64,000 bases of DNA. Source: an uncultured Verrucomicrobiae bacterium. Its GTDB lineage: Bacteria; Verrucomicrobiota; Verrucomicrobiia; Limisphaerales; UBA11358. Each line of letters opens with the position of its first letter. Position 1 is the stretch's first letter. The stretch covers positions 202,864-266,863 of the forward strand of contig CAWDKS010000001.1 of assembly GCA_963802965.1 (NCBI GenBank), written 5' to 3'. The notes beneath the pieces are model-generated. The model was not told where the DNA came from. It ran no database searches and saw nothing but the letters and a program-made list of their open reading frames with translations. Shown here piece by piece: positions 1-63,736 of this stretch. Position numbers and translations under genes: made by a program.

Positions 1-1749
1 TTGGGCGGACTCGTTCTGCGGCAAACGGCCCTGTCCCAGACCAATGCCGATGGGACCAGCCAAATGTCCCCGACTGCATCCGCCACCAACGCGCCCGCGG
101 CTGCGGACGCCGGCACACCCAACGCAGCGCCGGCCGCGGCGGACACCAATGCGCCCGCCCTGAACACCGCCGGCAGCGAAACCGCGGCGGCCACCGCGAC
201 CAACCCGCCGGCCGCCGCAATGGCCAGCGAGCCATCCGCCAGTCCGGCCACCAATGCGCCGGCACCCCCGACGGCGAGCATACCGCTCATCCAATTCCAG
301 GACGTTCCCCTGACCACCGCCATCGAAAACCTGGCGCGGCAGGCTGGAATTAATTATTTGCTCGATCCCAAAATCGGCTATGGCCAGCCCGATCAAAACG
401 GACAGGTCAAAGCCGAACCCACCCTCTCCATCCGCTGGGAGAACGTCACGGCCGAACAGGCCCTCCGGGCCTTGCTGGACAATTACGGCCTCCAGTTGAT
501 CGAAGACAAGAACAACCACATTGCCCGAATCACCACCCGGGACCCCTCGGCGCCGCCGCCGCTCATCACCCGCGTCATCCAGCTCAAATACTCCAGCGTC
601 TCCAACATGACCATGGCGGTGCAGTCGGTGTTCACCGACAAACGCAGCAAGGTGTTGCCGGACACGCGCACCAGCCAACTGGTGGTGGTCGCCACCGACC
701 CGGAACAATCGGCGGTGGACACCCTGATCGCCCAACTTGACACACCGACCCGCCAGGTCTTGATTGAAGCCAAGCTGGTTGAAATCACGAGCAACCCCAG
801 CACCAAGAAAGGCATTGACTGGTCGGGCACGCTCTCAGGGCAAAATGTTTCGTTCGGAAACAATTTGAATGGAAATCCAACCACCATTCCCCCCGGCTAC
901 GGACCGCCGGTCGGGATTACAACGTTCACAGGTTCCAATGGCGTCCCTGGGATATCTGGCCTTGGCCAGGAACTTGGTAACTTGGTTAACAAGCCGAGCG
1001 TCGTTGCCGACACTGCCGCCGGCTTTGGCACCATTGGCTTCTTAAATGCCGACGGCGTGAACGCCGTGATTTCTTTCCTGAATGTGTCCGCCGAAGCGCA
1101 GGTGGTTTCCACGCCACGGATTGTGACGCTGGACAATGAAGCAGCGACCATTTCCGTCACCCGCGCCTTTCCGGTTATCAATGTCACCGCCAGCACTGCG
1201 AACACGACTGCCGGTTCCACAATTGCCTATACCAACGTCGGCGTCGTTCTAAATGTTACTCCCCGCATTTCGGCCAACGATTATATCTGGCTCAAAGTCA
1301 TTCCTGACGTGTCCTCGTTTTTCGACACGCAGTCTCAAATCATCGGTGGCGCAACCTACCAGGCCGATGTATTTGATTTCCGCCACATCGAAACCCAGGT
1401 TCTCATTCCCAATGCCAATACTTTGGTCATGGGCGGCATGGTCTCGGACAATCCAAATACCTCCTATACCAAAGTGCCGTTTTTGGGTGACATCCCGGTT
1501 TTGGGATACGCCTTCCGGAGTGAAAACAAATCGGTAAGCAAGGACAATCTTTTAATATTCATCACTCCAACCATCGTCCAGGACAACGACTTTATGCCGG
1601 CGGCGACCGGTTTCCTCAAGTCGCGTCCGTTGACCATGAAACCCTCGTTGCACCCAAACAGTATGTGGGACAGTGGTACACCTTACGACTGGAGCAATCC
1701 CAAGAACACGGACCCCGCTGAGAAAATTCTTAGCCAAGATGAGCAATAG
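1..1749 (+). CDS. Secretin-family outer-membrane channel (GspD/PilQ-like), 5' end cut by window edge
   Basis: The ORF is open to base 1. It has an Ala/Pro/Thr/Asn-rich linker and an STN-like segment IPLIQFQDVPLTTAIENLARQAGINYLLDP. The C-terminal secretin signature is VPFLGDIPVLGYAFRSENKSVSKDNLLIFITPTIV. Confidence 0.9.
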   Translation: MGGLVLRQTALSQTNADGTSQMSPTASATNAPAAADAGTPNAAPAAADTNAPALNTAGSETAAATATNPPAAAMASEPSASPATNAPAPPTASIPLIQFQDVPLTTAIENLARQAGINYLLDPKIGYGQPDQNGQVKAEPTLSIRWENVTAEQALRALLDNYGLQLIEDKNNHIARITTRDPSAPPPLITRVIQLKYSSVSNMTMAVQSVFTDKRSKVLPDTRTSQLVVVATDPEQSAVDTLIAQLDTPTRQVLIEAKLVEITSNPSTKKGIDWSGTLSGQNVSFGNNLNGNPTTIPPGYGPPVGITTFTGSNGVPGISGLGQELGNLVNKPSVVADTAAGFGTIGFLNADGVNAVISFLNVSAEAQVVSTPRIVTLDNEAATISVTRAFPVINVTASTANTTAGSTIAYTNVGVVLNVTPRISANDYIWLKVIPDVSSFFDTQSQIIGGATYQADVFDFRHIETQVLIPNANTLVMGGMVSDNPNTSYTKVPFLGDIPVLGYAFRSENKSVSKDNLLIFITPTIVQDNDFMPAATGFLKSRPLTMKPSLHPNSMWDSGTPYDWSNPKNTDPAEKILSQDEQ

Positions 1750-7749: not shown

Positions 7750-7814
7750 GGGAGGGACGACGTGTCGGCGTCCCCAACTAGAAAAGTTTGGGACGGCGGC
7801 ACGCCGTCCCTCCC
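7750..7814. repeat. Twin-hairpin palindromic element, GGGAGGGACG...CGTCCCTCCC family
   Basis: GGGAGGGACGACGTGTCGGCGTCCCC...GGGACGGCGGCACGCCGTCCCTCCC sits between the convergent stops of eda and the GH105-like gene. Relatives occur at 35459, 42316 and 62469. Confidence 0.8.
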
Positions 7815-10191: not shown

Positions 10192-10445
10192 GGCGGGAAA
10201 ACTGGCCGGAAGCAGGGCGCGAATCAACGAAAAATGAATCAGGCGGCGTAAGTGAGGCATACTTGGACATTATGACAAACAAAGTTGCATTGTTTCGGAA
10301 GGAACGCCGGATTTATCCGGCAGGGCATTCAATCAAGCGAGCCCGCTGCCGCATGAATGCGGCGTTCCGTCGCAGTGTCGGGTGCGCCCGTGTGAGCAAG
10401 GTCTAAGGAATCGCCGGGAAGCACCGCCCTCATCCCACAAACCGC

Positions 10446-11314: not shown

Positions 11315-12148
11315 TTAACGCAAATCAATGGGTTTCACCCCGTCCATGTCGTCGAACGCCTGGTTTTCGCCGGCCATGCCCCAGATGAATTTGTAGCTGC
11401 CCATGCCGCAGCCGCAGTGAATGGACCAGTTCGGCGACAGCGCAGCTTCCTCGTTATGAACAAACAAATGCCGTGTCTGTTGCGGTTCGCCCAGAAAATG
11501 CGCCAGCACGTTCCCGCCGAGGTCGAAATAAAAATAAATCTCCGTGCGGCGCCAGTGCGTGTGCGGCGGAAAAGAATTCCAGACGCTGCCCTCCTCCAGC
11601 GCGGTGAACCCCATCACGAGCTGGCAGCTTGGGATACCGCCGGGGTGGATGTATTTGTAAATCGTCCGCTGGTTCGCCGCCGCCGGCGAGCCTAGCGGCA
11701 CCGGCGCGGCGTCCTTCGACTTCATCATCGCGGCGGGATGCGCCGCGTGCGCCGGACAGCTCAGGAAATAAAACTTCGCCGGATTTTTCCGGTCCTTGCT
11801 CTCGAAAACCACCGACTTGGTTCCCATCGGCAGATAGACGCAATCCAGCCGGTCGAGCGCGAACGATTTTTTGTCCGCGTGGACCGCGCCCGCGCCGCCG
11901 ACGTTGATGGCGCCCAACTCGCGGCGTTCGAGGAAAAAGGCGCGGCCGGTTTCCCTGTGGTTCGGCAGTGCCACCGGTTTGACCGGCACGACGCCGCCGG
12001 CCACGAGCCGATCCAGATCGGTGAAGACGCCGTGCAATTCGCCCGGCGCAAAAAGGTGGCTGATGAGAAAAGTGTCGCGCAATTCCTGTGTGTTCAGGCG
12101 CGTGATGTCCTGCGGACGCGGCATCCGGCGGATGGTGTTTTCGAACAT
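11315..12148 (-). CDS. kduI: 5-dehydro-4-deoxy-D-glucuronate isomerase
   Basis: 277 aa with cupin blocks FLERRELGAINVGG, SCQLVMGFTALEEGSVWNSFPPHTHWRRTEIYFYF and HNEEAALSPNWSIHCG. Confidence 0.9.
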   Translation of the reverse strand: MFENTIRRMPRPQDITRLNTQELRDTFLISHLFAPGELHGVFTDLDRLVAGGVVPVKPVALPNHRETGRAFFLERRELGAINVGGAGAVHADKKSFALDRLDCVYLPMGTKSVVFESKDRKNPAKFYFLSCPAHAAHPAAMMKSKDAAPVPLGSPAAANQRTIYKYIHPGGIPSCQLVMGFTALEEGSVWNSFPPHTHWRRTEIYFYFDLGGNVLAHFLGEPQQTRHLFVHNEEAALSPNWSIHCGCGMGSYKFIWGMAGENQAFDDMDGVKPIDLR

Positions 12149-12229
12149 GGGGGCAGCTTCTCAAAAAGGGAACCGGACGACAAGCCGTTGCGTCCGGTTT
12201 TGGGGAAAATGCCCTGCGGTGTCACCAAC

Positions 12230-12249
12230 AATGGTGACATGCGCGTTTT
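12230..12249. promoter_or_regulatory. Perfect 8-4-8 palindrome upstream of kduI (candidate repressor operator)
   Basis: TGTCACCA-acaa-TGGTGACA lies about 85 bp upstream of the kduI ATG. Confidence 0.35.
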
Positions 12250-12313
12250 CGGGTTTGGGGTATGCTATGACCAGCAGTTGGAGCGGTTCTCAAGTGTTTT
12301 AGTGTGTTAGAAA

Positions 12314-12336
12314 AGGCCGGACCCGGTGTCCGGCCT
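12314..12336 (-). terminator. Hairpin terminator downstream of ilvB
   Basis: AGGCCGGAC-ccggt-GTCCGGCCT forms a 9-bp stem flanked by an A-run and a T-run on both sides, about 120 nt after the ilvB stop. Confidence 0.5.
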
Positions 12337-12458
12337 TTCTCTTTTTTCACGCAGATTAGAGACTTCTTACGTCCACCCTCCGCAGTGCTACGCCCGTCCT
12401 CCGCAGTAGCTCTGCTACGGAGGATGGAGAGGACGGGTCGTCTCCTACTCTTTTGACG

Positions 12459-14387
12459 TCACACCTTCCAGATCATGTCCGCGACGGTCCTGCCCGTCGG
12501 AATGAACGGCAGCACGTGTTCGCTGTAGGGCGTCACCACGTCGAGCACATACGTTTCCTTCGCGTCCAGCATCCGCTGGATGGCGGGGCGCAAATCCTTT
12601 TTGAACATCACGCGCTCGCATTTGACGCCGAAGGAATTGCAGACGCGGACATAGTCCGGATAAATCTCGGGGCGATGATCCGGGTCGCCGAGATAGGTGT
12701 GACCGCGGTTGCCGGCGTAAAAGTTGTCCTCCCATTGCACCACCATGCCGAGATGCTGGTTGTTCAGGATGATGGCCTTGGCGGCGATTTTTTCCACGTG
12801 CGCGGTGGCCAGTTCCTGGATGTTCATCAGGAACGAGCCGTCGCCGTCTATGTCAATCACTTCCCGGTCCGGGTGCGCGATCTTGATGCCGAGCGCCGCC
12901 GGGAAACCAAAGCCCATCGAACCAAGCCCGCCACTGGTGATGAACTGGCGCGGGTGTTCATACTTGAACCATTGGCCGGCCCACATCTGGTGCTGGCCCA
13001 CGCCGGTGGTGATGATGGCGTCGCCCTTGGTCAGGTCGTAAAGCGCCTCGACCACCATCTGTTGCAGGATGATCTGGTCTTCCTTGCCCTTGAGATGGTC
13101 TTTCATGTGGTCGCTGCTGGCGATCTCGTGCGTGACGGCGTAGGCAAACGGCCCCTTCTTTTTCCATTCCTCGATTTGCGCGAGCCACGCGGTGTGCTTC
13201 TTCGCGAGCGGACGTTTGGCGAGCAGCGCGTTGAGCCGCGTGAGGGCGTTCTTGATGTCGCCGACCACCGGCAGGTGCGCCTTTTTGTTCTTGTTCAGCT
13301 CGGACGCGTCAATGTCCACGTGGACAATCGTGCCGTTTTTGCAGAACTCCTCGAACTTGCCGGTCACGCGGTCGTCGAACCGCACGCCGAACGCGAGCAG
13401 CAGGTCCGCGCCGTCCTTGAGCTTCACCATCGGGTCGTTGAAACTCTTGCGCAGCTCGTATTCGCCGTTGACGGCCCAGTTGGCGAAGGCCGCGCCGTGC
13501 ATGCCCAGCCAGCGCAACGAGAGCGGATGCGTTTCCGGAAAACCGCCGATGCCCATGAGTGTGGTCGTCACGGGGATCTGCGCGGCCTCGGCGAATTTTT
13601 TCAATTCCGCCGATGCGCCGCTGCTGATGATGCCGCCGCCGCAATAAATCACCGGGCGTTCGGCCTTTTCAATCAGCCCCATGATTTCGTTCAAGGCCAC
13701 TTCGTCCGCGCGCAGGTCGGGCTGGTTGTAACCGCGCAGGCCCTTTTTGATTTGCTCGAGCGTCGGCCACACGGGCTGGGTTTTGGCCTGCTGAATGTTT
13801 TTCGGCACGTCAATCACCACCGGGCCGGGGCGGCCGGTCTGAGCGAGGTAAAACGCCTCCTTCACGATGCGCGGGATGTCGTTCACGTCCGTGACGAGGT
13901 AGCTGTGCTTCACGATGGGCAGGGTCACGCCGATGATGTCGGTTTCCTGGAACGCGCCTCGGCCGATCATGTTGGTGGTGACCTGGCCGGTGATGGCGAT
14001 GAGCGGGCAGGAATCCAGATAGGCGTCAGCAATGGCGGTGACGAGGTTGGTCGCGCCGGGGCCGCTGGTGCCCATGCACACGCCGGCCTTGCCGGTCGCG
14101 CGGCCATAACCTTCCGCCGCGAAACTGCCGCCCTGTTCGTGGCGTGGCAGGATGGTGCGGATTTTGGATTTCGTGAGCGACTGGTGGATTTCCATGCTCG
14201 CGCCGCCGGGATAGGCGAAAATGACCTCGACGCCTTCGCGTTCGAGAGCCTGGACGAGGATGTCGCGTCCGAACATGGTCGGGCCTACCTCGGCGCGCGC
14301 GGCGGCGGGGGCGGATTTCTTTTCTTGTCGCGCCGAAGCCGTTTTTGCGGCGGAGGCGGATCCAGCGGTTTCAGTTGTCTTGCTCAT
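12459..14387 (-). CDS. ilvB: Acetolactate synthase (acetohydroxy-acid synthase) large subunit, biosynthetic type
   Basis: MFGRDILVQALEREGVEVIFAYPGGASMEIHQSL, the ThDP motif GGLGSMGFGFPAALG...IDGDGSFLMNIQEL and the FAD-domain blocks are present. The start is set at MSKTTE (14387). No ilvN follows. Confidence 0.93.
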   Translation of the reverse strand: MSKTTETAGSASAAKTASARQEKKSAPAAARAEVGPTMFGRDILVQALEREGVEVIFAYPGGASMEIHQSLTKSKIRTILPRHEQGGSFAAEGYGRATGKAGVCMGTSGPGATNLVTAIADAYLDSCPLIAITGQVTTNMIGRGAFQETDIIGVTLPIVKHSYLVTDVNDIPRIVKEAFYLAQTGRPGPVVIDVPKNIQQAKTQPVWPTLEQIKKGLRGYNQPDLRADEVALNEIMGLIEKAERPVIYCGGGIISSGASAELKKFAEAAQIPVTTTLMGIGGFPETHPLSLRWLGMHGAAFANWAVNGEYELRKSFNDPMVKLKDGADLLLAFGVRFDDRVTGKFEEFCKNGTIVHVDIDASELNKNKKAHLPVVGDIKNALTRLNALLAKRPLAKKHTAWLAQIEEWKKKGPFAYAVTHEIASSDHMKDHLKGKEDQIILQQMVVEALYDLTKGDAIITTGVGQHQMWAGQWFKYEHPRQFITSGGLGSMGFGFPAALGIKIAHPDREVIDIDGDGSFLMNIQELATAHVEKIAAKAIILNNQHLGMVVQWEDNFYAGNRGHTYLGDPDHRPEIYPDYVRVCNSFGVKCERVMFKKDLRPAIQRMLDAKETYVLDVVTPYSEHVLPFIPTGRTVADMIWKV

Positions 14388-14399
14388 GGCGTTTTTGGG

Positions 14400-14431
14400 G
14401 ATTGATGGATTGATGGATTGATGGATTGATG
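14400..14431. repeat. (GATTGATG)x4 perfect 8-bp microsatellite in the ilvB 5' UTR
   Basis: Read directly. Degenerate inverted copies (CATCCAATCATCCAG...) follow at about 14459-14495. Confidence 0.9.
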
Positions 14432-14526
14432 GGCCGACGCTTCGGGGCGTTTTCCCACCCATCCAATCATCCAGTTATCCAATAATCCATTCATTTTTTG
14501 GTTGTGGCTGGTGGCGCGGATTAAAC

Positions 14527-14556
14527 AAAAAACCCACAGCCGTTGCCAGCCGTGGG
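14527..14556 (-). terminator. Attenuator/terminator hairpin between leader peptide and ilvB (it also lies downstream of the MFS gene)
   Basis: On the minus-strand RNA: CCCACGGCUG-GCAA-CGGCUGUGGG, a 10-bp stem with 2 G.U pairs and a GNRA loop, followed by UUUUUU. On the plus strand the same positions are A.C mismatches, so the structure is strand-specific. Confidence 0.7.
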
Positions 14557-14574
14557 TTTTTGTCGAAATTCAAC

Positions 14575-14658
14575 TTAACAACGACAAGCGCCAACGGCGT
14601 CGCTGACGACAACGACGACGACCGCCAGAGTAACTGCTTGTCCGATGTTGTTTAACAT
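14575..14658 (-). CDS. Val-rich leader peptide (27 aa) MLNNIGQAVTLAVVVVVVSDAVGACRC
   Basis: Hand-translated ATG(14658)-TAA(14575). It has 8 Val (6 consecutive) plus Ile/Leu. It ends 18 nt before the terminator hairpin and lies 190-270 nt upstream of ilvB. Confidence 0.6.
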   Translation of the reverse strand: MLNNIGQAVTLAVVVVVVSDAVGACRC

Positions 14659-14667
14659 TACGCGGAT

Positions 14668-14695
14668 AGTCTAACATCTGGCGGGAGTTGGTCAA
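14668..14695 (-). promoter_or_regulatory. Candidate sigma70-type promoter for the ilvB leader
   Basis: On the minus strand, TTGACC-16 nt-TAGACT ends 9 nt before the leader ATG. Confidence 0.35.
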
Positions 14696-14714
14696 GCCCT
14701 GTTTTTGGCCAATT

Positions 14715-16226
14715 TCAGGCCCTTTTTTGCTCCACCTCGGCAATATATTTGCGAGTGGCATGAGGCAATTCATGCCAGACCTTTATCGAAATGAGGGTGC
14801 CAATAATGGCAAACGGGACCAGAAATACAGGCCACCACAGCCACTCGCGCGGGATAAAATGGAAATGGGGGACGAACTGGCCATTCGCAGGCCCGTTTTT
14901 TTCCGGAACCAGAAACCCAGTGCACAGTGATTGCAGGCCGCTGCCCAGGTAAGCAAAGCCGTTGACAATGCCCATGCACGTCGCGGTGGCCTTGCGCCCG
15001 CCAAAATCCGTCGCGGCCGTGCCGGACATCAACGACGTGATGCCGATGGACGCCATGACGATGAACACCGCCGCCCAGCCGACAATGAGCGGCCGGGAGA
15101 ACAGAAAGGCGGCCATGGCCACGGCCATGAGCAGCACGAATCCACACAACATCGCGGTCGGCGGCCCGCGACGGGAATGAAATAATTTGTCGGAAATCAA
15201 TCCGCCGGAAAAGCCGCCGACAATCCCGAAGACGCAGGTGTACCAGCCCCAGTGCTGCGAGATAAATTCAGCGCCCGTCTGCTTCACTTCGCTTCCAAAA
15301 ATGGAATACCATTCCGTCATGCTGTAACGGAAAACGCCGCCGGTCAGTTCGACACAGGCAAACAGCAGCATCAGCGGATTGGTGAAGACTTTTTTCAGGA
15401 GGTCGAACGTGCTGAACTCGATATGCATCTGGCCGGACGAGGCATCATGCGTGTCGAAATCCTCCAGATCCGCTTCTGCCGGCGAATCCTTGATCAGCCA
15501 GATATCGAGCAACACCCAGAAAATCAGGATGGCTGCGGGGATGTAAAACACCGCCCAGGTCGCGTCCAATTGCCGGCCGGCTGGCGAAAAAATATCGTGG
15601 AGCAGGCCGGAGGCGTTTGCCCTGGTCAGCGCAATAATCGAGCTGCCCCAATCGAACGCAAAATAAACACCGATGGAAATCAGCGTCCCGAAAATCGCCC
15701 CGAACACGCCGCGTTCGCGCACGTGGAACCAGTAAGCCTTGACCTTGATAATGGACATGGAGCCGAAGCTCTGGAAATACATGTTCAACGCGTAAAGGAC
15801 CGAGTAGCTGACGACGAGATTCACCTTGAAATTTTTTGCGATAATCAGCCAGGTCAGGGCACCGAGGGCGACGTTGGCCAGTGAGGCGCCGACGGCGGAA
15901 ATGATCATGCCGCGCTTGCCACCCAGCGTTCTGTCAATCAGCGGCCCATTGACCACGAACGACAACGCATAAACCCATGTGCCAATGCCGAAGATAATGC
16001 CAAGATCCTGCTTGGACATTAATGTCCCCAAAGCGCTCTTGGCGACGATGATATTGTAACGTCCCATGCACAGGAACGCATAAGTCATCCCCAGCGGGAA
16101 CCAATTGATGAAACGGCGCACCATGAACCAGCGCCCGTGTTTCAGTGGATTGTTGAAAAAATAAGCGGCCACCACCGCCACCAAACAAAGCGCAATCGTG
16201 GCCGGATAGAGATAATCTGGAATCAT
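14715..16226 (-). CDS. MFS transporter (organophosphate/sugar-acid antiporter-like)
   Basis: 503 aa with about 12 TM segments. It has an MFS loop motif, GPLIDRTLGGKRGMI, and a second-half motif, GLISDKLFHSRRGP. Confidence 0.8.
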   Translation of the reverse strand: MIPDYLYPATIALCLVAVVAAYFFNNPLKHGRWFMVRRFINWFPLGMTYAFLCMGRYNIIVAKSALGTLMSKQDLGIIFGIGTWVYALSFVVNGPLIDRTLGGKRGMIISAVGASLANVALGALTWLIIAKNFKVNLVVSYSVLYALNMYFQSFGSMSIIKVKAYWFHVRERGVFGAIFGTLISIGVYFAFDWGSSIIALTRANASGLLHDIFSPAGRQLDATWAVFYIPAAILIFWVLLDIWLIKDSPAEADLEDFDTHDASSGQMHIEFSTFDLLKKVFTNPLMLLFACVELTGGVFRYSMTEWYSIFGSEVKQTGAEFISQHWGWYTCVFGIVGGFSGGLISDKLFHSRRGPPTAMLCGFVLLMAVAMAAFLFSRPLIVGWAAVFIVMASIGITSLMSGTAATDFGGRKATATCMGIVNGFAYLGSGLQSLCTGFLVPEKNGPANGQFVPHFHFIPREWLWWPVFLVPFAIIGTLISIKVWHELPHATRKYIAEVEQKRA

Positions 16227-16718
16227 TCTGTCGCGCGAAGCAAAGCAGAGCCGCGCCCCCCGGTCAAAGGATTTTGGGTGACAAAAAGGCCGCGGAGTAT
16301 TTCCTAGACGGTGCTAATTTCAATTTCATTGACTAATTTCCCATGCATCCACCCCAATGTTTATGCCATTTTCGACCATGAAAACATCAATAGACCTTTT
16401 GAGGGATGACAAAACCAACTTCTCCCGGTCTCAATCTCCTTTCCACCATCAGTTCGGTGCTAATTCCGGCACTGTCAAGAGCCTCCATCACTCCAATAAG
16501 CGAGGGTTCGGACTTCGCGCCTTTGTTTATATTCGCAGGGACGAGTTTCTTTTGGGGATAACCAGCGCGTTTCTCGCGTGACTTCTTATCGGAGGACTTT
16601 TTTTGTCCACCTTTTTGCGGACTCGCGGGGGGAATTAAATCGTCAGCCATTTGACATCCTCAAAATATTTGCAAATTTCAAATCGTTTTGGGTGTGTAAT
16701 TAATTTGCTTGAATGCGT

Positions 16719-18389
16719 TCATTGCCAATAGTCCGCAAAATCCACCCACCGATAGAGCCAGTAAGCCCACGGGATGAAAGCGCCCGCGCCCCAATTATTT
16801 GAATTGACGTAGTCATGGACGCCATCGGCCCACCAACCAAAAGCGACAATCGTGTTGGTGGACCCGAAGGGCGTGAAGCCATCGAAGTAGGCCACGTTCG
16901 GGGCGTTTTGCAGCGCGATACTGCGGATTATCTGTCCTTGTTGCTGTTGGTCTGCGTTCTTGCTGGGATAAGTTCCGATCAGAACAATTCCGGCGTTCGG
17001 GCAGTTGGTGCGATAAAAGCTCACCCATGCCGGGAGATAGGTTTGCAAGGTGTTCGTGTTTTCGATGCTTTGCCAGAAGATGATGTCCGGCGACCAGGTC
17101 CGGTAAATGGGGGACGATATGGAGTTTGACACCGCCAGTTCATTATACTCGTAGCTTGAGCTGTTAATCTGCCAGTTGAAAATGAAGCCGTTGGTGATTT
17201 TACTGTTGGTCACGACCCAGTTCACAATCCGGTTCGTGCCATTGCCGGAGTTTTGAAAGTAGAAATCAAGCTGTCTTGGGCCACTGTTGTTGGTCCAAAA
17301 AACGCTCCGGCCGGCCAGCGGACCGGATGCGCCAATGCCGCCCAGGGCAACATTCGTAGGTCCGCCGGCCCCGTTGTTCGTCAGAATATTGAAGGCGCCG
17401 CCGTCTGGCGCTGTGATGTAATCCACTTCAATCGTATCCCATACGAAAGAAGTGTAAAACTGAACGGCGGCGGCATTGTTGGAAAGAACCAGATAACTGC
17501 CATACCAGTTGCCGTCCTTGCCACCCTGTGTGCTGTTTGTGAGAAAAGTGTAGCCGATTTGGTAGTGATCGAGGTAAGCCTGATTGCAGCCGGCGAATGG
17601 CAGGCAGAGGTTGGTCATCAGATAGTCGAGGAAAACGGGGTAGAGCCATGACGCCAGACCCGTGCCATCGAGTTCAATTTTGATGGTCTTGCCGGCGCGC
17701 AATTTGGCAATCGCATTGGTCCACGAGTAACGGTTGACGTTCTGAAAATCGTTCAGCCGGGACGCCTGCTCGAACATCCAGAGATTGGAGTCAAGATTCG
17801 TCTCGTCGGCCGTGCCGAACGCAATTTGAGAAGCCGACACGTTGGTCAGCCCTGCTCCATTGCCGCCGAAGGTTCCCGCCAGCGTTAGGCCGGTTGCGCC
17901 ATTGGTCACCACCGTGGCGGGCAATTGCGCCAGTGGAACCGTGCCGCTCAATTGCGCGGCGGGCAGTGTGCCCAGCAGGTTGCTGGCGCTGTTGGCCATG
18001 ATGGCGTAGGGCACGGACAGAACCGGCTGACGCGGGGAAAGCGTTGTGAACATGCCGCTGCCGTTTGTCCGCACGTCTGCCTGCAGCCAAAGCGCCGGCC
18101 CGCTGAAAACGCCAGCGCCGAAATCCAGCGTCACGGCGAACAGCCCGTTCGTCACCGGCGTGGCGGAATTGGTGACCGGCCCGGCGATGACGTTGCCGGG
18201 ATTGTTGGTTGAATCGTAAATCGTGAACCGCAAATCGTAGATCCCATTGGCGGGGTTGCCACGGTCATTGAGACGGCCTTGATAGCCAAACGCCGTGCCT
18301 TGGGCGAAGACGGTTGAGAGTTGAAGGCTGAGGGTTGAGAACACCGCACACAGCAAGCCGGTTTGAATCAGGTTTCGTTTGGTTTTCAT
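16719..18389 (-). CDS. Secreted protein: tail-fibre-like N-terminal region plus uncharacterised C-terminal domain (possible SGNH-like)
   Basis: Signal peptide MKTKRNLIQTGLLCAVFSTLSLQLSTVFAQG, then FGYQGRLNDRGNPANGIYDLRFTIYDS, a motif type seen at the start of phage-tail-fibre-like proteins. The C-terminus contains WWADGVHDY (a DxxH-like block). The function is unknown. Confidence 0.7.
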   Translation of the reverse strand: MKTKRNLIQTGLLCAVFSTLSLQLSTVFAQGTAFGYQGRLNDRGNPANGIYDLRFTIYDSTNNPGNVIAGPVTNSATPVTNGLFAVTLDFGAGVFSGPALWLQADVRTNGSGMFTTLSPRQPVLSVPYAIMANSASNLLGTLPAAQLSGTVPLAQLPATVVTNGATGLTLAGTFGGNGAGLTNVSASQIAFGTADETNLDSNLWMFEQASRLNDFQNVNRYSWTNAIAKLRAGKTIKIELDGTGLASWLYPVFLDYLMTNLCLPFAGCNQAYLDHYQIGYTFLTNSTQGGKDGNWYGSYLVLSNNAAAVQFYTSFVWDTIEVDYITAPDGGAFNILTNNGAGGPTNVALGGIGASGPLAGRSVFWTNNSGPRQLDFYFQNSGNGTNRIVNWVVTNSKITNGFIFNWQINSSSYEYNELAVSNSISSPIYRTWSPDIIFWQSIENTNTLQTYLPAWVSFYRTNCPNAGIVLIGTYPSKNADQQQQGQIIRSIALQNAPNVAYFDGFTPFGSTNTIVAFGWWADGVHDYVNSNNWGAGAFIPWAYWLYRWVDFADYWQ

Positions 18390-20186: not shown

Positions 20187-20250
20187 TTATTTTTTCAATC
20201 GTTGAAGCGTTAAAGCGATGAAGAGTTGAAGCGGTTTACGCTTCAGCGCT

Positions 20251-20844
20251 TTAACCCTTCAACGCTTCAACCTTTCCGTTAAATTGACTCATTGCCATTT
20301 CAATGCCGTCGGCCAGCCAGCATTCCGCCTGGTCGGCCGCCCGGCCCAAAACTTTTTCCATCACCGCCGCTTCCGCCGCGTCAAAACGGTCCAGCACGTA
20401 ATCCGTGATTTCCCGCGCGCCGTCCTTGCGGCCGATGCCGAGCCGCAACCGCGCAAACGCCTGCGTGCCCAGATGCTGCCCGACGGACTCCAGACCGTGA
20501 TGTCCGCCGCTGCTGCCGCCCGCCCGCAGGCGAATTTCGCCCAGCGGCAAATCCGCATCGTCCACCGCCACCAGCAACTGTTCCGGCGGCAACTGATAAA
20601 AACCCATCACCGCTTTCACCGCCTCGCCGCTCGCATTCATGAACGTCCGCGGCTGGCACAGCAGGACGCGGATGCCGTTGCGTTCGGCGCGCGCGACGCG
20701 GGCATTGAACTTCCGTTCGTTCCGCCAATCCACTTTCCAGCGCGACGCCAGTTTCCCGGCCAGCGAAAACCCGGCATTGTGGCGCGTCTTCGCGTATTCC
20801 GCGCCGGGATTGCCCAGTCCCGCGATGAGATGCCATGACTCCAT
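20251..20844 (-). CDS. pth: Peptidyl-tRNA hydrolase
   Basis: HLIAGLGNPGAEYAKTRHNAGF, RVLLCQPRTFMNASGEAV and VDDADLPLGEIRLRAGGSSGGHHGLES. The start could be the ATG at 20844 or the GTG at 20853. Confidence 0.9.
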   Translation of the reverse strand: MESWHLIAGLGNPGAEYAKTRHNAGFSLAGKLASRWKVDWRNERKFNARVARAERNGIRVLLCQPRTFMNASGEAVKAVMGFYQLPPEQLLVAVDDADLPLGEIRLRAGGSSGGHHGLESVGQHLGTQAFARLRLGIGRKDGAREITDYVLDRFDAAEAAVMEKVLGRAADQAECWLADGIEMAMSQFNGKVEALKG

Positions 20845-37040: not shown

Positions 37041-37104
37041 TCGGAGGGACGAGCTCTGCGAGTCCCATTTCAAATTCAGGGGTTCGTGGAACTCGTCCCT
37101 CCGA
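37041..37104. repeat. CGGAGGGACGAG...CTCGTCCCTCCG palindromic element in the regulator-kinase spacer
   Basis: TCGGAGGGACGAGCTCTGCGAGTCCC...GGTTCGTGGAACTCGTCCCTCCGA. Relatives occur at 58409 (inside pheT) and 63661. Confidence 0.8.
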
Positions 37105-47815: not shown

Positions 47816-50404
47816 ATGACTCGTTGCGCGAAAAAAATTCTGAGATCTCTGCCAAACCGGGGCGCGGACAGCTTTGTCCGCGAGTTCAGGTGGCCGGCAT
47901 GCTGGCGGACATGGCTGTCCGCGCTCCTCAACGCCACTCGCCACGGGCTTTGCAGAGGTCTCATTCTGTGTGCCGGCTCAACAGTCGGCCTGATGGCGCC
48001 GGCCGTGTCCGCGCAAATGGCGACGCCGCCAGGCGACATGCCGCTTTTCTTTGAGGCCAATCGCGGACAGGCAGACCATTCAGTTCAGTTCCTCGCGCGT
48101 GGACGCGATTCCCAATTCCTGATTTCGCCGGCCGGAGCGAAAATCGTCCTGCGCAAAGATGCGGCGGCGCCCGTGACGGTGCGAATGCAATTCATGGGCG
48201 CAAACCCACAAGCGCAAATCCGCGGCGATGCCGCATTGTCCGGCCAGGTCAATTACCTTGTGGGCAACGACCCCGCGCAGTGGCATACCGGGGTGCCGAC
48301 CTTTGCCAAAGTCCGCGTCGCGGAGCTTTATCCCGGCATCAACCTGGTTTATTACGGCAATCAGCAACGGCTTGAATACGATTTCACGATTGCTCCGGGG
48401 GCGAACCCGGATGCCCTTGCCATTCATTTCGACGGCGTGGACAGAATGTCAATCAATGCGCAGGGCGAACTGGTTTTGACCTTGAGTGGCGGTGAAATCC
48501 GCCAGCCCAAGCCGGTGATTTATCAGATGGCGAATGGCATACGCCATGAAATCAGCGGCGGCTACCGGCTGGCGCACGCACGCACCGTTGCCTTCGCTGT
48601 CGGCAACTACGATCACAGCCTGCCGCTGGTGATTGACCCGATCTTGAGTTACTCCACTTACTTCGGCGGCAATTATGGTGAAACTGCCTGGGCGGTTGCG
48701 ATCAACACAAACGACGGTTCCATTTACATGGCAGGCCAGACCTTTTCGACGCAATTCACGAACTGGCCGGTTCCACCCGGCGCATATCAGACAAATTTCC
48801 ATGGTGGTACTCTGACCGGTGATGCTTTTGTAGCCAAGTTTGACAACGCGGCACAAAATCTCATTTATTTTACCTACCTTGGCGGCAGCGGCGACGACGC
48901 CGCTTACGGACTGGCTGTGGACACCAACGGCGATGCTTATATCGCCGGTGTTACTGACTCGACAAATTTTCCTGTCAGGAACGGAATTTACACCAACATC
49001 AGCGGTACTCTGAATACCCATCTCGGAGTTTATCCTGTGGACGCTTTCGTTGCGGAATTGGGTCCCGGCGGTTCCAACTTGGTGTATTCCACCTATCTTG
49101 GCGGCGAAAGTGCCGATGCAGCCTTTGGCATCGCAGTGGATTTGGCCGGTAACGCTTATGTGACCGGCTTCACCTATTCAACGAATTTCCCGGTCAAAAG
49201 CCCGGTGCCTTATCAGTTGGCGGGGACAACAAACTTGTACTTGAACCACCTGGCCTGCACCAATACGGTGTACTACAATGCCAATGCCTTCATCGCCAAA
49301 ATTGCTCCCGGCGGCAACAACCTGATTTATTCAACCTACTTTGGCGGCAACAATTTTGATATCGGCGAAGGCATCGCCGTTGACAACCTCAACCAGGTTT
49401 ATGTGACCGGTTTCACCGCCTCGACCAATTTCCCAAACCTAAACGCATTCCAAAAATACTTGAACGGCTCGACAAATCAGGATTCCGCCTTAGACGCCTT
49501 TGTTGCCAAATTTGATTCGACTGGTACAAATTTACTTTACTCAACTTTTCTCGGTGGCATCAACGACGATGTCGCTTATTCCGTCGCCGCTGACAACAAC
49601 GGTGCCGCTTACGTGACCGGCTGGACAGTTTCAACCAATTTTCCAAATACCGTTACAAATTCCAATCTCTACAATGGGCTGACCAACAACTTGTATTACG
49701 GTTACAGTCTCACCACCAACGCCTTCCTGACAAAGATTACCAACGGCGTTCAGGCTGGAATCGCCTATTCCACCGTCTTTGGCGGCACCAATCTCAACAC
49801 TGACGTCGGCTACGGCGTGGCACTTGACGCGGCGGGCAATGTATTTGTCGTTGGCACCACCTCCTCGACCAATTTCCCGGTCACAACGAACAACCTCTCC
49901 GGTTTTCTCCGCGCGACCAACTCCGGCGGCAATGATGTGTTTGTCATCGCCTTCAACACCAATGCCACCGCCCTGCTTTATTCCGCCTATCTGGGCGGCT
50001 CGGCCGATGATTTTGGTTATGGCATCGCCGTGGATTCGCTGGGCAACGCCTATGTTGTCGGCCAGACGCTTTCGACGAACTTTCCCACGCTCAATGCCCG
50101 CCAGGCCACGCTCAACGGAACGAACGACACCTTCCTCGCCAAAATCCTGCTGACCGTCCCGTCGCCGGTGCTCACCATAACCACTTCCGGCAGCAATAAT
50201 TTCGAGATTTCCTGGCCGGCGGTGCTGCCGTTTGAGCCGGAACTGGGGCAATTGTTCGAGTTGGACTTCAACACCAGTTTGACCTCACCCACCAACTGGA
50301 TTTCGGCGGGCTTTCCAGTGGTGTTGACCAATAACTTGTATACTTACAGTTTCCCGTTAAACCCCATCTATACCAATGCGTTCTTCCGTCTGCGCGCGCC
50401 ATAG
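47816..50404 (+). CDS. Giant secreted beta-propeller (SBBP-repeat) protein
   Basis: FFEANRGQADHSVQFLARG in the N-domain, then more than 10 SBBP-type repeats (YSTYLGG...D.A.GIAVD..GNAYVTG.T.STNFP). The C-terminus is the FFRLRAP-type domain. The ATG lies 2 nt after the bamA stop, but the start is uncertain because a repeat element sits in the N-region. Confidence 0.8.
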   Translation: MTRCAKKILRSLPNRGADSFVREFRWPACWRTWLSALLNATRHGLCRGLILCAGSTVGLMAPAVSAQMATPPGDMPLFFEANRGQADHSVQFLARGRDSQFLISPAGAKIVLRKDAAAPVTVRMQFMGANPQAQIRGDAALSGQVNYLVGNDPAQWHTGVPTFAKVRVAELYPGINLVYYGNQQRLEYDFTIAPGANPDALAIHFDGVDRMSINAQGELVLTLSGGEIRQPKPVIYQMANGIRHEISGGYRLAHARTVAFAVGNYDHSLPLVIDPILSYSTYFGGNYGETAWAVAINTNDGSIYMAGQTFSTQFTNWPVPPGAYQTNFHGGTLTGDAFVAKFDNAAQNLIYFTYLGGSGDDAAYGLAVDTNGDAYIAGVTDSTNFPVRNGIYTNISGTLNTHLGVYPVDAFVAELGPGGSNLVYSTYLGGESADAAFGIAVDLAGNAYVTGFTYSTNFPVKSPVPYQLAGTTNLYLNHLACTNTVYYNANAFIAKIAPGGNNLIYSTYFGGNNFDIGEGIAVDNLNQVYVTGFTASTNFPNLNAFQKYLNGSTNQDSALDAFVAKFDSTGTNLLYSTFLGGINDDVAYSVAADNNGAAYVTGWTVSTNFPNTVTNSNLYNGLTNNLYYGYSLTTNAFLTKITNGVQAGIAYSTVFGGTNLNTDVGYGVALDAAGNVFVVGTTSSTNFPVTTNNLSGFLRATNSGGNDVFVIAFNTNATALLYSAYLGGSADDFGYGIAVDSLGNAYVVGQTLSTNFPTLNARQATLNGTNDTFLAKILLTVPSPVLTITTSGSNNFEISWPAVLPFEPELGQLFELDFNTSLTSPTNWISAGFPVVLTNNLYTYSFPLNPIYTNAFFRLRAP
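47861..47927. repeat. GCGCGGACAGC...GCTGTCCGCGC palindromic element inside the predicted signal-peptide n-region
   Basis: GGCGCGGACAGCTTTGTCCGCGAG...GGCGGACATGGCTGTCCGCGCTCC. A relative in the opposite orientation occurs in pheT at 59696. Confidence 0.75.
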
Positions 50405-54277: not shown

Positions 54278-54301
54278 AAGTCCAAAATTTTCAGTTTCAA
54301 G

Positions 54302-54331
54302 CGGGCGACCGGCAACGGTCGCCCGTTTTTT
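54302..54331 (+). terminator. Rho-independent terminator after rplT
   Basis: CGGGCGACCG-gcaa-CGGTCGCCCG forms a 10-bp stem with a GNRA loop, followed by TTTTTT. Confidence 0.8.
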
Positions 54332-54337
54332 GTGTGG

Positions 54338-54433
54338 AAACATCGAACACTGAACATCGAACGCTCAACGTCCAGTTTCCTTCCGGCGCAATCATTGGAT
54401 GTTCGATGTTGGGCGTTGAATGTTGGATGTTCC
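54338..54433. repeat. Degenerate inverted array of (A)ACATCGAAC / TCAACG units
   Basis: GAACATCGAACGCTCAACGTCC...GGATGTTCGATGTTGGGCGTTGAATGTTGGATGTTCC forms a long imperfect hairpin. Confidence 0.6.
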
Positions 54434-57814: not shown

Positions 57815-60405
57815 AAGTCACCTTTAACTGGCTCAAACAATACGTTGATTTCAACTGGTCGCCCGAAGAATTGACCGAGCGGCTCACCATGCTCGGCCTC
57901 GAAGCCGAAAGCGTCCGCAAAATGGGCGGCGAGTTCGAGGGCGTCGTCGTCGCCCAAATTCTTACGCGCGACCCCGTGCCCGGCTCGGACAAGCTCTCCG
58001 TCTGCAAGGTCAACGACGGCAAGGGCGAGCGCACCATCATTTGCGGCGCGCAGAACCACAAGCCCGGCGACAAAGTCCCGCTCATCCTGCCGAACTTCGC
58101 GTTGCCGCTGAAGCCCGGCGACAAGGAGCCGTTCGTCATCAAGGAACGAAAAGTTTTCGGCATCACCAGCCACGGCATGATGTGTTCGCCGCAGGAGCTC
58201 GGCCTGCCGGACAAGGTGGACGGCCTGCTCATTTTGCCTGCGGACGCGCCCGTGGGAAAACCATTCGCCGAATACCTCGGTCGCGCGGGTGATGACGTGG
58301 TTTATGATTTGGAAATCACGCCAAACCGACCGGATTGGAACAGTGTTATCGGCATCGCCCGCGAAATCGCGGCGGTGACGGGAAACAAGCTGAAGATGCC
58401 GCAAATCACGGAGGGACGAGTTACACGAGTCCCCAATTCTGCCGAGCAGTCAGGGGCTCGTGGAACTCGCCCCTCCGAAAAGCCGGAAAATTTGGTCAGC
58501 GTGCGCATCGAAGACGCCGAGCTATGCCCGCGTTACACCGCGCGGGTCGTCCAGGGCGTGAAAATCGGGCCAAGCCCGGACTGGCTCCGCTCGACACTGG
58601 AGAAAGTCGGCATCCGTTCGATTAACAACGTCGTGGACGTGACGAATTACGTGATGCTCGAAAGCGGCCAGCCGCTGCACGCGTTTGACTATCATTTGGT
58701 GGCACGGGCGTCCCGCCCGTGTGTTGATGACGAAACTCACAGGCAAGATGCCTGTGCCACTATTATCGTCCGCCGCGCCGCCGCCGGCGAGAAGTTCAAG
58801 ACGCTCGACAATCAGGAGCGCACGCTGACGAGCGAAATGCTTTTGATTGCCGACGAACAAAAAGGCATCGCCCTCGCCGGCATCATGGGCGGCCAGAACA
58901 CGGAAATTAATAGTTCGACGACGGATGTGCTCATCGAAAGCGCCTATTTTTCGCCGACGAACATTCGTCGCACGAGCAAGGCGCTCGGTCTACGCAGCGA
59001 GTCCAGCTACCGTTTTGAGCGCGGCGCGGACATCGGCATCTGCGATTGGGCCAGCCTGCGCGCGGCACAATTGATTCTGGAAACCGCCGGCGGCCAGCTC
59101 GCCGAAGGCGTCGTGGACGCGTATCCGAAACCCGTTGAGCCGAAGCACGTGACGCTGCGCCATCACAAGGTCAACGAACTGCTTGGCATCGCCTTAAAAC
59201 CGGAGGAGTGCGAATTTTATCTCGGTCAGCTTGGATTGAAGGTTGTGAATCGCAAGGCGCGTCCGGTGGGAGCGGGCGGCACGCCGGAGCCGGTGACGTT
59301 TCAAATTCCAACCTTCCGCGTGGACTTGAAACGCGAGGTGGATTTGATCGAGGAAATCGCCCGCCTGCACGGCGTGGACAAGATTCCAGCCACGCCGCCG
59401 CGCGGGGCGATTGGCGCAAACGCGTTTGATTCCGTCCACGACGAAATTGCCGAGGCGCGTCGCATCCTCACCGGCCTCGGCTTGAACGAAGCGCAAGGCC
59501 AGACGCTGGTGGCGAATGCAGAATGCAGAATGAAGAATGAAGAATTGGTTGCGCTCGCGAATCCGTTGAGTTCAGACATGGATGTGCTGCGTCCAAGTCT
59601 GCTGCCCGGCTTGATTCATTCATTGCGGCACAACATCACCCGGAAGAATTACGATGTGGCTTTGTTTGAAATCGGGCGGGTGTTCGCGTCGGGCAGGAGC
59701 GCGGACAGCCATGTCCGCGAGAACAAACCAACGCCGGAAAACGCGGACAAAGCTGTCCACGCTCCTTCCGAAGAGCGCTGCGTGGCCATCGCGCTCACCG
59801 GTCAGCGTCATCCTCTGTTCTGGAGTGGTGATGACCGCGACGCAAAGTTTGACGCTTACGATTTGAAAGGCCTGCTGGAGGAATTTTTCGAGCAATTCGG
59901 TTTGCGCGGAATGACGTTCAACCGCCGGGCTGAAAGCACCACGCTCTTTCTCGAATCGAGCACGGTTCAACTTGGCAGGCAAACCTTGGGTGAACTCGGC
60001 CAGTTGTCGCCGGTGCTGGCGAAGAAATACGATTTGCGCGACGCGGTTTTTCTTGCCGAGCTGAACCTGGATCAACTGCTCGCGCGGCGTAATCCGGCGA
60101 AAACGTTCAGGCCGTTGCCGCAATTCCCGTCCATCCGCCGCGACGTGGCGATGCTCGTGCCGGAAGCGACGACGCACGAGTCGGTTTGGCAAACGGTCAG
60201 GAAAACCAAGCCCCCGAATCTCGAAACGGTGGAATTGTTCGACGTGTTCCGGGGCAAGAATGTGCCGGAAGGTCAAAAGAGCCTGGCCTACGCGTTCACC
60301 TATCGTTCACCGGAAAAAACTTTGACGGACGCCGAGGTGAACGCCGCGCACGCGAAAATCTTGGAAGCCTTCAAACAGCAGTTGAACGCGGTTGTGCGCG
60401 AGTAG
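57811..60405 (+). CDS. pheT: Phenylalanine--tRNA ligase beta subunit, carrying several in-frame repeat inserts
   Basis: MKVTFNWLKQYVDF, a tRNA-binding domain, B3/4 and B5 domains (ITPNRPDWNSVIGIAREI, INNVVDVTNYVMLESGQPLHAFD, SSYRFERG), and an FDX-ACB C-domain. Confidence 0.93.
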   Translation: MKVTFNWLKQYVDFNWSPEELTERLTMLGLEAESVRKMGGEFEGVVVAQILTRDPVPGSDKLSVCKVNDGKGERTIICGAQNHKPGDKVPLILPNFALPLKPGDKEPFVIKERKVFGITSHGMMCSPQELGLPDKVDGLLILPADAPVGKPFAEYLGRAGDDVVYDLEITPNRPDWNSVIGIAREIAAVTGNKLKMPQITEGRVTRVPNSAEQSGARGTRPSEKPENLVSVRIEDAELCPRYTARVVQGVKIGPSPDWLRSTLEKVGIRSINNVVDVTNYVMLESGQPLHAFDYHLVARASRPCVDDETHRQDACATIIVRRAAAGEKFKTLDNQERTLTSEMLLIADEQKGIALAGIMGGQNTEINSSTTDVLIESAYFSPTNIRRTSKALGLRSESSYRFERGADIGICDWASLRAAQLILETAGGQLAEGVVDAYPKPVEPKHVTLRHHKVNELLGIALKPEECEFYLGQLGLKVVNRKARPVGAGGTPEPVTFQIPTFRVDLKREVDLIEEIARLHGVDKIPATPPRGAIGANAFDSVHDEIAEARRILTGLGLNEAQGQTLVANAECRMKNEELVALANPLSSDMDVLRPSLLPGLIHSLRHNITRKNYDVALFEIGRVFASGRSADSHVRENKPTPENADKAVHAPSEERCVAIALTGQRHPLFWSGDDRDAKFDAYDLKGLLEEFFEQFGLRGMTFNRRAESTTLFLESSTVQLGRQTLGELGQLSPVLAKKYDLRDAVFLAELNLDQLLARRNPAKTFRPLPQFPSIRRDVAMLVPEATTHESVWQTVRKTKPPNLETVELFDVFRGKNVPEGQKSLAYAFTYRSPEKTLTDAEVNAAHAKILEAFKQQLNAVVRE
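58409..58477. repeat. CGGAGGGACGAG...CCCCTCCG element (69 bp) inside pheT
   Basis: CGGAGGGACGAGTTACACGAGTCCCC...GGGGCTCGTGGAACTCGCCCCTCCG is translated as EGRVTRVPNSAEQSGARGTRPSE. Confidence 0.8.
58700..58759. repeat. TGGCACGGGCGTCCCGCCCGTG...CACAGGCAAGATGCCTGTGCCA element (60 bp) inside pheT
   Basis: Two adjacent hairpins bounded by GGCAC/GTGCC, translated as ARASRPCVDDETHRQDACAT. It interrupts the conserved LHAFD...I.VR block. Confidence 0.7.
59524..59556. repeat. Heptanucleotide tandem repeat (GAATGCA)2(GAATGAA)2GAATT inside pheT
   Basis: Read directly. It is translated as NAECRMKNEEL. Confidence 0.85.
59696..59765. repeat. GGAGCGCGGACAGC...GCTGTCCACGCTCC element inside pheT
   Basis: GGAGCGCGGACAGCCATGTCCGCGAG...GCGGACAAAGCTGTCCACGCTCC is translated as RSADSHVRENKPTPENADKAVHAPS. 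It belongs to the same family as 47861-47927. Confidence 0.75.
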
Positions 60406-60491
60406 ATGGGATTTCGGAACGCCGCGTTCACGCGGCCTGCTTCTGTTGACCTATGATTGCTGCCGTCTGAAGGCGGCGTTCCTCGCAGATT

Positions 60492-62465: not shown

Positions 62466-62468
62466 TTT

Positions 62469-62530
62469 GGGAGGGACGGCATTTTGCCGTCCCAAAAATC
62501 AATTGGGGACGGCGGCACGCCGTCCCTCCC
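62469..62530. repeat. Twin-hairpin GGGAGGGACG family element in the lemA-M48 spacer
   Basis: GGGAGGGACGGCATTTTGCCGTCCCaaaaatcaattGGGGACGGCGGCACGCCGTCCCTCCC. Confidence 0.8.
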
Positions 62531-62535
62531 ACGCT

Positions 62536-63732: not shown

Positions 63733-63736
63733 AAAA

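Follow-up and report, generated by a model that had tools for sequence, protein, structure and literature searches.

A predicted valine-dependent leader-peptide attenuator in front of ilvB in Verrucomicrobiota

The minus strand of a 64,000-nucleotide stretch of DNA from an uncultured Verrucomicrobiae bacterium (contig CAWDKS010000001.1; hereafter the window) carries a short valine-rich open reading frame (ORF) and a terminator-like hairpin ahead of ilvB, the gene that encodes acetolactate synthase's large subunit. Do the two form an attenuator of ilvB, or does the hairpin merely end the gene upstream, with a chance reading frame in front of it? A first-pass annotation of the window had put forward the attenuator. 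All the minus-strand elements it listed (region 14703..14527) were found again, base for base: the TTGACC-16-TAGACT promoter, the 27-codon ORF, whose translation indeed contains eight Val with six in a row, the 18-nt gap, the hairpin and the spacing to ilvB. We consider it likely that these elements constitute a ribosome-mediated leader-peptide attenuator, which ties ilvB transcription to the supply of charged tRNA-Val; Leu and Ile codons probably make a minor contribution. The proposal came through the comparative tests described below, and it is from anatomy, conservation, covariation, predicted energies and geometry that we infer premature termination and its response to valine.

Relatives were collected by scanning one genome per species with the ilvB protein. 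This yielded 80 loci (L001-L080), whose ilvB is 82-92% identical to that of the window. The labels of the metagenome-assembled genomes (MAGs) from which they come are almost all Verrucomicrobiota, Verrucomicrobiae, Limisphaerales, Pedosphaera or subdivision 3, and the organism is a soil Verrucomicrobiota bacterium, Pedosphaera/Limisphaerales-like. Every genome locus with enough upstream DNA, 76 in total, has the promoter, a Val-rich ORF in frame and the terminator in front of ilvB; 71 were detected automatically and five (L016, L027, L041, L050, L066) by eye. In the remaining four, the contig is cut within the element (L064) or lacks the region (L031, L039, L075). The conservation of mini-ORF and terminator that the first-pass annotation called for is thus present throughout. 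Because the same promoter, ORF and terminator stand before ilvB in every one of these 76 loci, the element is not a product of chance; this is the decisive argument. Leader statistics are taken from 72 automatically extracted leaders, and columns are numbered after a 70-sequence alignment (A1), of which A2 is the transcribed part.

We also scanned metagenome contigs for exact matches to 18 nt of region 3 (defined below), ACAAGAACCCACGGCTGG. At least 120 stretches with at least 121 matches were obtained. Of the matches listed, all 106 with enough downstream DNA have ilvB downstream; of the other 15, 14 are followed by fewer than 270 nt of sequence and the last is on a probably chimeric 1-kb contig. 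Within the window we found no second copy, as region 2 and the terminator pattern recur no more often than chance allows. A protein search aimed at more distant ilvB genes returned, among the matches listed, sequences of at least 86% identity only.

Could the hairpin nevertheless be the plain terminator of the preceding gene, which encodes a major facilitator superfamily (MFS) transporter, and the Val-rich ORF a chance frame? The first-pass annotation had kept this caveat. The MFS gene has the same orientation, its end being 154 nt from the hairpin, and the A-tract before the stem with the T-tract after it would suit an ordinary terminator. However, an MFS homologue is found upstream of ilvB in only about 25 of the 80 loci, yet the ORF and hairpin are there in 76 of 76 loci with enough sequence. 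A conserved promoter separates the MFS stop codon from the ORF; the ATG, frame and stop of the mini-ORF are conserved; and ilvB always comes next after the element. Since the flanking genes differ between loci, the element forms a unit with ilvB and the hairpin is not the MFS terminator; the caveat is contradicted by synteny, and we regard this explanation as highly improbable. A count of the strand of the nearest ORF proved too noisy for this question, owing to shadow ORFs. The gap between the U-run and the ilvB ATG is only about 37 nt in most relatives; a promoter of its own would not fit there, and transcription of ilvB must therefore pass through the terminator. Judged by sequence comparison, promoter, leader, terminator and ilvB are one conserved unit amid changing neighbours. 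An annotation should therefore include the mini-ORF, as a leader peptide, and should not assign the hairpin to the upstream gene as its terminator.

The promoter-like site is the only sigma-70-like site in 13800-15400, where 0.5 would be expected, so that alone it is not significant; the same holds for the terminator count in the consensus scan. Its conservation is more telling. In A1 the CTTGAC and TAnnnT columns are nearly invariant and the spacer between them is unconserved. TTGAC stands 35-40 nt ahead of the ATG in 68 of the 72 leaders, and the end of TANNNT lies 7-10 nt ahead of it in most of them (9 nt in 37, and 9 nt in the window). With transcription starting about 7 nt past the -10 element, the 5′ untranslated region (UTR) would measure at most 3 nt, leaving no room for a Shine-Dalgarno sequence. 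The mini-ORF is therefore predicted to be leaderless or near-leaderless, the transcription start itself being deduced from the position of the -10 element.

Several indirect coding signatures suggest that the mini-ORF may be translated. It begins with ATG in 68 of the 72 leaders, spans 18-27 codons and ends with TGA (57 leaders) or TAA (15). The visible indels in the coding part are all steps of 3 nt, and the frame is open in every relative (A1, A2). Val accounts for 30% of the leader residues, with a median of 7 per peptide of about 23 codons, and the longest Val run has 2-7 codons (median 4); replacements within the run include Leu, Ile and Ala codons. The conserved peptide motif is QVV..VVVV.DAVGAC. 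Third positions vary in the Val run, whereas the synonymous sites of the two pairing segments that we call regions 1 and 2 are nearly invariant: the third position of the CAA codon in region 1 hardly changes, and the DAVGAC codons are invariant in nucleotides, third positions included.

The choice of Val codons is also unusual. Pooled leaders contain 206 GTC, 152 GTT, 141 GTA and 15 GTG, and eight large genes of the window contain 129, 74, 9 and 215, respectively. GTG thus makes up half of the Val codons in these genes but 15 of 514 in leaders, and GTA 2% against 27%; this bias is that of the pooled relatives, the window's own leader using GTC and GTT only, with no GTA. It could reflect either greater sensitivity to tRNA-Val charging or a constraint from RNA pairing.

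Conservation at synonymous sites of regions 1 and 2 is a sign of constraint at the RNA level, and a second explanation builds on it: an attenuator sensed by a protein or a small ligand, which binds the GUN repeats in the manner of TRAP or the invariant GACGCCGUUGGCGCUUGU, the ORF being incidental. A GU-N repeat with a period of 3 nt is by itself indistinguishable from Val codons, and the transcript would begin at the ATG without a Shine-Dalgarno sequence. What such a sensor leaves unaccounted for is the ATG fixed in 68 of 72 leaders, the open frame with its visible indels in steps of 3 nt, the stop codon always beside region 2, and replacements in the run that are not arbitrary triplets but include codons for Leu, Ile and Ala. 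Furthermore, the leader matches no riboswitch, T-box or protein-binding leader in Rfam, and leader-peptide control of ilvB has been reported in several phyla (PMC10272879, PMC13236596). We find a ligand-sensing attenuator quite unlikely.

The RNA of the proposed leader-peptide attenuator is predicted to adopt three structures. The stop codon and the terminator stem are separated by 18 nt, GTTGAATTTCGACAAAAA. With its flanking A/T pairs, the terminator scores 15 pairs. One G.U and one U.G pair of the stem become C.A and A.C mismatches on the opposite strand, so a good helix exists on this strand only, as first noted from the window. In A1 (178-189 with 195-206), 98% of the cells are paired; one pair covaries (AU 54, GC 15), two neighbours exchange GC and GU, and a U-run of 4-8 follows. 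The terminator alone has a median energy of -22.7 kcal/mol.

The competing structure is built on a hairpin at the stop codon, termed B, in which CUUGUYG pairs with YRACAAG (A1 142-148 with 171-177; 93% paired). It shows covariation, pair 147:172 being UA in 42 sequences and CG in 17. The predicted antiterminator extends hairpin B outward by pairing GCCGU.GG (132-139) with CC.ACGGC (180-187) of the terminator 5′ arm, and the best version of it joins GCCGUUGGCGCUUGU(CG) to (CG)ACAAGAACCCACGGC, which contains this arm. Its 14-pair helix is 95% paired, against 25-65% in slid controls (A1), and the columns of region 2, its 5′ strand, are invariant or nearly so in the 70 sequences, synonymous sites included. 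For energies we folded the nascent RNA as it would be with the polymerase just past the 5′ arm and a ribosome stalled on the Val codons. The antiterminator is then the minimum-free-energy fold, with a mean pair probability above 0.5 in 69 of 70 sequences; its median energy is -21.5 kcal/mol (window, -18.4).

A different, 7-bp antiterminator had been proposed in the first-pass annotation. Its segment GCCGTTG (14598..14592) does complement CAACGGC in the loop and 3′ arm of the terminator, but it is the weaker candidate. This GCCGUUG pairing is 86% paired and displays no covariation or double changes. In 32 of the 70 sequences pair 138:192 does not form, and a partner slid by +3 columns is still 82% paired. 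Because of this weaker pairing it was rejected in favour of the pairing of the same leader segment with the 5′ arm.

A third helix emerges from the RNAalifold consensus on A2, between ACAAGY of region 1 and GCUUGU of region 2 (96% paired). Within it the Val codons pair, CGUCGU with GCGACG (88% paired). One relative (L062) has G>A in region 1 together with C>U in region 2, and an A at the matching place of region 3. The 1:2 state has a median energy of -24.9 kcal/mol (window, -28.7). CUUGU can thus bind the upstream ACAAG (1:2) or the downstream ACAAG (2:3), and CCCACGGC either region 2 or region 4. Folding therefore predicts mutually exclusive structures, as the first-pass annotation had suggested one should look for, in a 1:2 / 2:3 / 3:4 layout. 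Four hallmarks of a leader-peptide attenuator are found or predicted here: an ORF rich in codons for the pathway product, an intrinsic terminator on the same strand, an exclusive antiterminator and a suitable ribosome geometry.

The geometry was measured on 65 sequences (Table 1). Given this spacing, a ribosome that terminates at the stop codon and occupies about 26-30 nt would cover region 2 and spare region 3. With the ribosome stalled in the Val run, except at its last one or two codons, region 2 would remain free.

These distances suggest the following mechanism. The transcript would start at most 3 nt before the leader ATG, and a ribosome would load on the essentially leaderless mini-ORF. 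With ample valine it would reach the stop codon and cover region 2 (GCCGUUGGCGCUUGU), leaving region 3 free to pair with region 4; the terminator would form and transcription would stop at the U-run before ilvB. With scarce valine the ribosome would stall among the consecutive Val codons, which lie 9-24 nt upstream of region 2. The latter, being free, would then pair with region 3 (ACAAGAACCCACGGC, including the terminator 5′ arm) before region 4 is made, and RNA polymerase would read through into ilvB. Without translation, region 1 (ACAAGY and the Val codons) would pair with region 2, region 3 would stay free and termination would be the default.

Table 1 Features of the ilvB leader, of the surrounding window and of the leader geometry (positions of the last four rows are relative and come from the 65-sequence geometry table).
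Feature	Position	Strand	Remarks
Promoter-like site TTGACC-16 nt-TAGACT	14668..14695	minus	Consensus scan; conserved in relatives
Leader ORF, 27 codons + TAA, MLNNIGQAVTLAVVVVVVSDAVGACRC	14575..14658	minus	Translation; 8 Val, 6 consecutive
Region 1, ACAAGC	14636..14641 (ORF nt 18-23)	minus	Fixed position in geometry table; pairs with region 2 GCUUGU; putative anti-antiterminator or pause helix enclosing Val codons
Six consecutive Val codons GTC GTC GTC GTT GTC GTC	14605..14622	minus	Proposed regulatory codons
Further Val codons	14632-14634 and 14593-14595	minus	Translation
Region 2, GCCGTTGGCGCTTGTCG	14582..14598	minus	Predicted antiterminator 5′ strand; GCTTGT also pairs with region 1
Region 3, CGACAAAAACCCACGGC	14549..14565	minus	3′ strand of stop-codon hairpin and predicted antiterminator; overlaps terminator 5′ arm
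Intrinsic terminator (AAAAA)CCCACGGCTG-GCAA-CGGCTGTGGG then TTTTTT	14527..14561	minus	Stem and U-run proper 14556..14527
Periodic hairpin, 8-nt tandem units GGATGATT x4 / ATCAATCC x4	14399..14494	minus	ilvB 5′ UTR, between terminator and ATG
ilvB, biosynthetic acetolactate synthase large subunit	12459..14387	minus	Proposed regulated gene, apparently monocistronic
MFS transporter gene	16226..14715	minus	Upstream of ilvB
Periodic hairpin, ~8 nt, CGTTGAAG / ACGCTTCA	20194-20271	minus	Just before ATG of S6-like ORF
Periodic hairpin, ~8 nt, GAACATCG... / ...GTTCGATGTT	54339-54431	plus	Between rplT terminator and pheS
REP-like palindrome sites	7750-7814, 37041-37104, 62468-62531, 63660-63733; 47859-47927, 59692-59769; 10298-10371, 60416-60482		
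Val run	starts at ~nt 31-46 (medians)		ORF numbering
Region 2 start	9 nt past first base of last Val codon; median 24 nt past first Val codon		
Stop codon	starts 1 nt (or 7 nt) past region 2 end, 15-21 nt past region 2 start		
Region 3 start	13-20 nt past stop codon start		

A third explanation accepts that the mini-ORF is translated and denies that it serves valine-specific transcription attenuation. It could be a gene for a small hydrophobic peptide followed by a leaky terminator, an upstream ORF (uORF) for general translation stress, or part of a control by Rho or reinitiation. The motif QVV..VVVV.DAVGAC could indeed mean selection on the peptide, the terminator is strong (about -22.7 kcal/mol) and favoured at equilibrium, and there is the precedent of a Streptomyces coelicolor leader that behaves non-classically (PMC1262725). 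On the other hand, the invariance of DAVGAC extends to third positions, which points to RNA pairing and not to peptide selection. The enriched residue is specifically Val, which the ilvB pathway produces, and the common GTG is avoided; the stop codon and the geometry of regions 2 and 3 match the classical model; and the element is found only with ilvB. We hold a role other than valine attenuation to be unlikely.

A number of observations weigh against the valine-dependent attenuator itself. The relatives are all members of a single clade, their ilvB being at least 82% identical, and shared ancestry accounts for part of the conservation. Columns 132-139 and 180-187, which make up the antiterminator extension, hardly vary, and covariation there is weak; pair 136:183 is UA in 48 sequences, UG in 13, CG in 3 and unpaired in 6. 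As a candidate for covariation, positions 136 and 183 were rejected: of the 5 sequences that have C at 136, 3 have G at 183, compared with 16 of all 70, which is not significant (hypergeometric p ~0.07, calculated by hand and uncorrected for phylogeny). When the 5′ part of region 2 is shuffled, the median z is only -1.9, and in the window 8 of 100 such shuffles fold as well. At equilibrium the full-length RNA folds into the terminator in 70 of 70 sequences. The terminator wins at equilibrium, so read-through must be kinetic, as it is in classical attenuators such as the E. coli trp leader. Untranslated nascent RNA at equilibrium forms the antiterminator in 44 of 70 sequences; termination as the default without translation would depend on the order of folding. 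The GUN triplet repeats could be a protein-binding site. Finally, changes made to the putative regulatory codons of an S. coelicolor ilvB leader were without effect (PMC1262725), a warning that layout does not prove function.

How does the element compare with known systems? In Rfam, no riboswitch or T-box family, such as the ppGpp riboswitch discussed for ilvB (PMC10272879), matched at E up to 10 in 14380-14720 or 12000-17000. His_leader (RF00514) reached 25.5 bits, below its gathering threshold of 49, with an alignment carried mainly by the terminator; the leader ORF has no His codons, and no Rfam family other than this sub-threshold one aligned to the leader, in a release whose coverage of the ilvB-OMG and Leptospira ilvB motifs is unconfirmed. 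A blastn search with 11-base words of 5,426 E. coli genomes gave only chance matches in hyfD (E = 7).

The first-pass annotation had likened the layout to the enterobacterial ilvBN (ivbL) and ilvGMEDA (ilvL) leaders. The four-segment arrangement is alike, but there is no sequence similarity to E. coli genomes. Like these leaders and those of E. coli trp, his and leu, the element has a short ORF rich in codons for the pathway product, an intrinsic terminator before the first structural gene, 1:2 / 2:3 / 3:4 segments, and an antiterminator weaker than the terminator, which makes control kinetic. The pooled leaders favour GTA, a codon rare in genes; the leu leader is a similar case of rare codons. 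Unlike the enterobacterial leaders, the element lacks a Shine-Dalgarno leader, its ORF lying at most 3 nt from the predicted start, and ilvB appears to be monocistronic here, in the phylum Verrucomicrobiota, unlike the enterobacterial ilvBN operon. The element is analogous to the enterobacterial leaders, not homologous with them.

Actinobacterial ilvB leaders also place a uORF rich in branched-chain amino acid codons before ilvB, followed by a Rho-independent terminator. Described cases are the uORF attenuator of Mycobacterium tuberculosis ilvB1NC (PMC13236596), the Corynebacterium ilvB-II motif or ilvBNC attenuator (PMC10272879, PMC11857589) and further predictions (PMC1262725). According to the M. 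tuberculosis model, about 26 nt are masked when a ribosome sits at the stop codon, which blocks the antiterminator; stalling at the regulatory codons permits it (PMC13236596). The geometry is the same as that found here. Sequence and peptide are nevertheless unrelated, the verrucomicrobial Val run is much longer, and the third (1:2) pairing sets the element apart. The actinobacterial operons include ilvN and ilvC, whereas ilvB stands alone here. The M. tuberculosis system is backed by SEnd-seq, ribosome profiling and reporters, and the present element is predicted from sequence.

The ilvB-OMG and Leptospira ilvB RNA motifs have been re-read as uORF attenuators, the latter with at least 3 consecutive Val codons (PMC10272879). 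In 2010 Naville and Gautheret knew such systems only in Proteobacteria, Actinobacteria and their own Firmicutes cases (PMC2965389). Leader-peptide control of ilvB is by now known or predicted in Proteobacteria, Actinobacteria, Leptospira and others (PMC10272879, PMC11857589, PMC13236596, PMC1262725). A full-text literature search found no such element described for Verrucomicrobia, and the survey of Lopatovskaya et al. 2010 may list further phyla.

The ilvB ORF encodes 642 aa, and its ATG at 14387 lies 139 nt past the terminator U-run. The product matches TIGR00118 at 678 bits (cut-off 538) and has the three Pfam domains of thiamine pyrophosphate enzymes. In the window, ilvB is followed by genes of uronate catabolism (KduI, an SDR, GH88-DUF4861), and in relatives by various others (3-keto-disaccharide-hydrolase-like, PilM, AAA ATPase or PQQ propeller). 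Neither ilvN/ilvH nor ilvC is adjacent to ilvB in the window or in L001-L080; as ilvB has no neighbouring ilvN/ilvH, its regulatory small subunit must be encoded elsewhere in the genome.

The 5′ UTR of ilvB in the window contains, in addition, a periodic hairpin of about 100 nt (-40.4 kcal/mol, z = -3.8). It is an insertion missing in most relatives and lies outside the conserved attenuator. About 15 loci have an insert at this site (L001, L003, L005, L008, L017, L018, L027, L030, L032, L037, L051, L054, L055, L064, L080). The inserts are of two kinds, unrelated in sequence (GGATGATTGG... or GATTAAGATTAAGA...). This points to repeated insertions, or to selection favouring a periodic hairpin, at this place. 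Counting it, three periodic hairpins occur in 5′ UTRs or intergenic regions of the 64 kb. The second precedes the S6-like ORF, MKRYEGLFILNT, which is followed by ssb and rplI, and the third precedes pheS. A second attenuator before pheS was considered and rejected: the terminator at 54301-54330 is just the one after rplT, and no ORF rich in Phe is present.

Other observations concern the window and the contigs at large. Intergenic palindromes resembling repetitive extragenic palindromic (REP) sequences fall into three families, GGGAGGGACG...CGTCCCTCCC, GCGCGGACAGC...GCTGTCCGCGC and GGAACGCCG...CGGCGTTCC. The longest frame of the ribosomal protein L9 ORF (18610-19737, minus strand) has 375 aa, and its L9 N-domain begins at residue 138, so that either translation starts internally or the protein carries a long N-terminal extension. 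Ten MAG contigs with a verrucomicrobial ilvB are labelled Bifidobacteriaceae, Bifidobacterium, Candidatus Sulfotelmatobacter or Pseudomonadales (L013, L031, L041, L042, L045, L046, L060, L067, L074, L079). They are probably mis-binned or mislabelled; the leader is seen in nine, and the tenth, L031, has no upstream DNA. A metagenome contig of 1,019 bp (L083) carries the leader core twice, inverted, at 166-183(+) and 636-653(-), most likely as a fold-back assembly chimera.

What would the attenuator mean for these bacteria? It requires no new concept, uORF attenuation of ilvB being already regarded as a common mechanism (PMC10272879), and a specialist would not be surprised by it. It may be the first leader-peptide attenuator family described in Verrucomicrobiota, of the PVC (Planctomycetes-Verrucomicrobia-Chlamydiae) superphylum, and one running on a leaderless mini-ORF; we see the chances of this reading as evenly balanced. 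Some actinobacterial leader peptides are likewise reported to be leaderless. The apparent leaderless start of the present ORF suggests that the attenuation design needs no Shine-Dalgarno site. If our reading is true, leaderless initiation and tight coupling of transcription and translation operate in Verrucomicrobiota, and promoter, leader, terminator and ilvB make up a compact, portable unit that keeps its regulation wherever it is located in the genome. Classical ribosome-mediated attenuation would thereby extend to a phylum known mostly from metagenomes, in which gene regulation has been little studied, through a well-defined family of more than 180 examples, all before ilvB, with a testable four-segment model.

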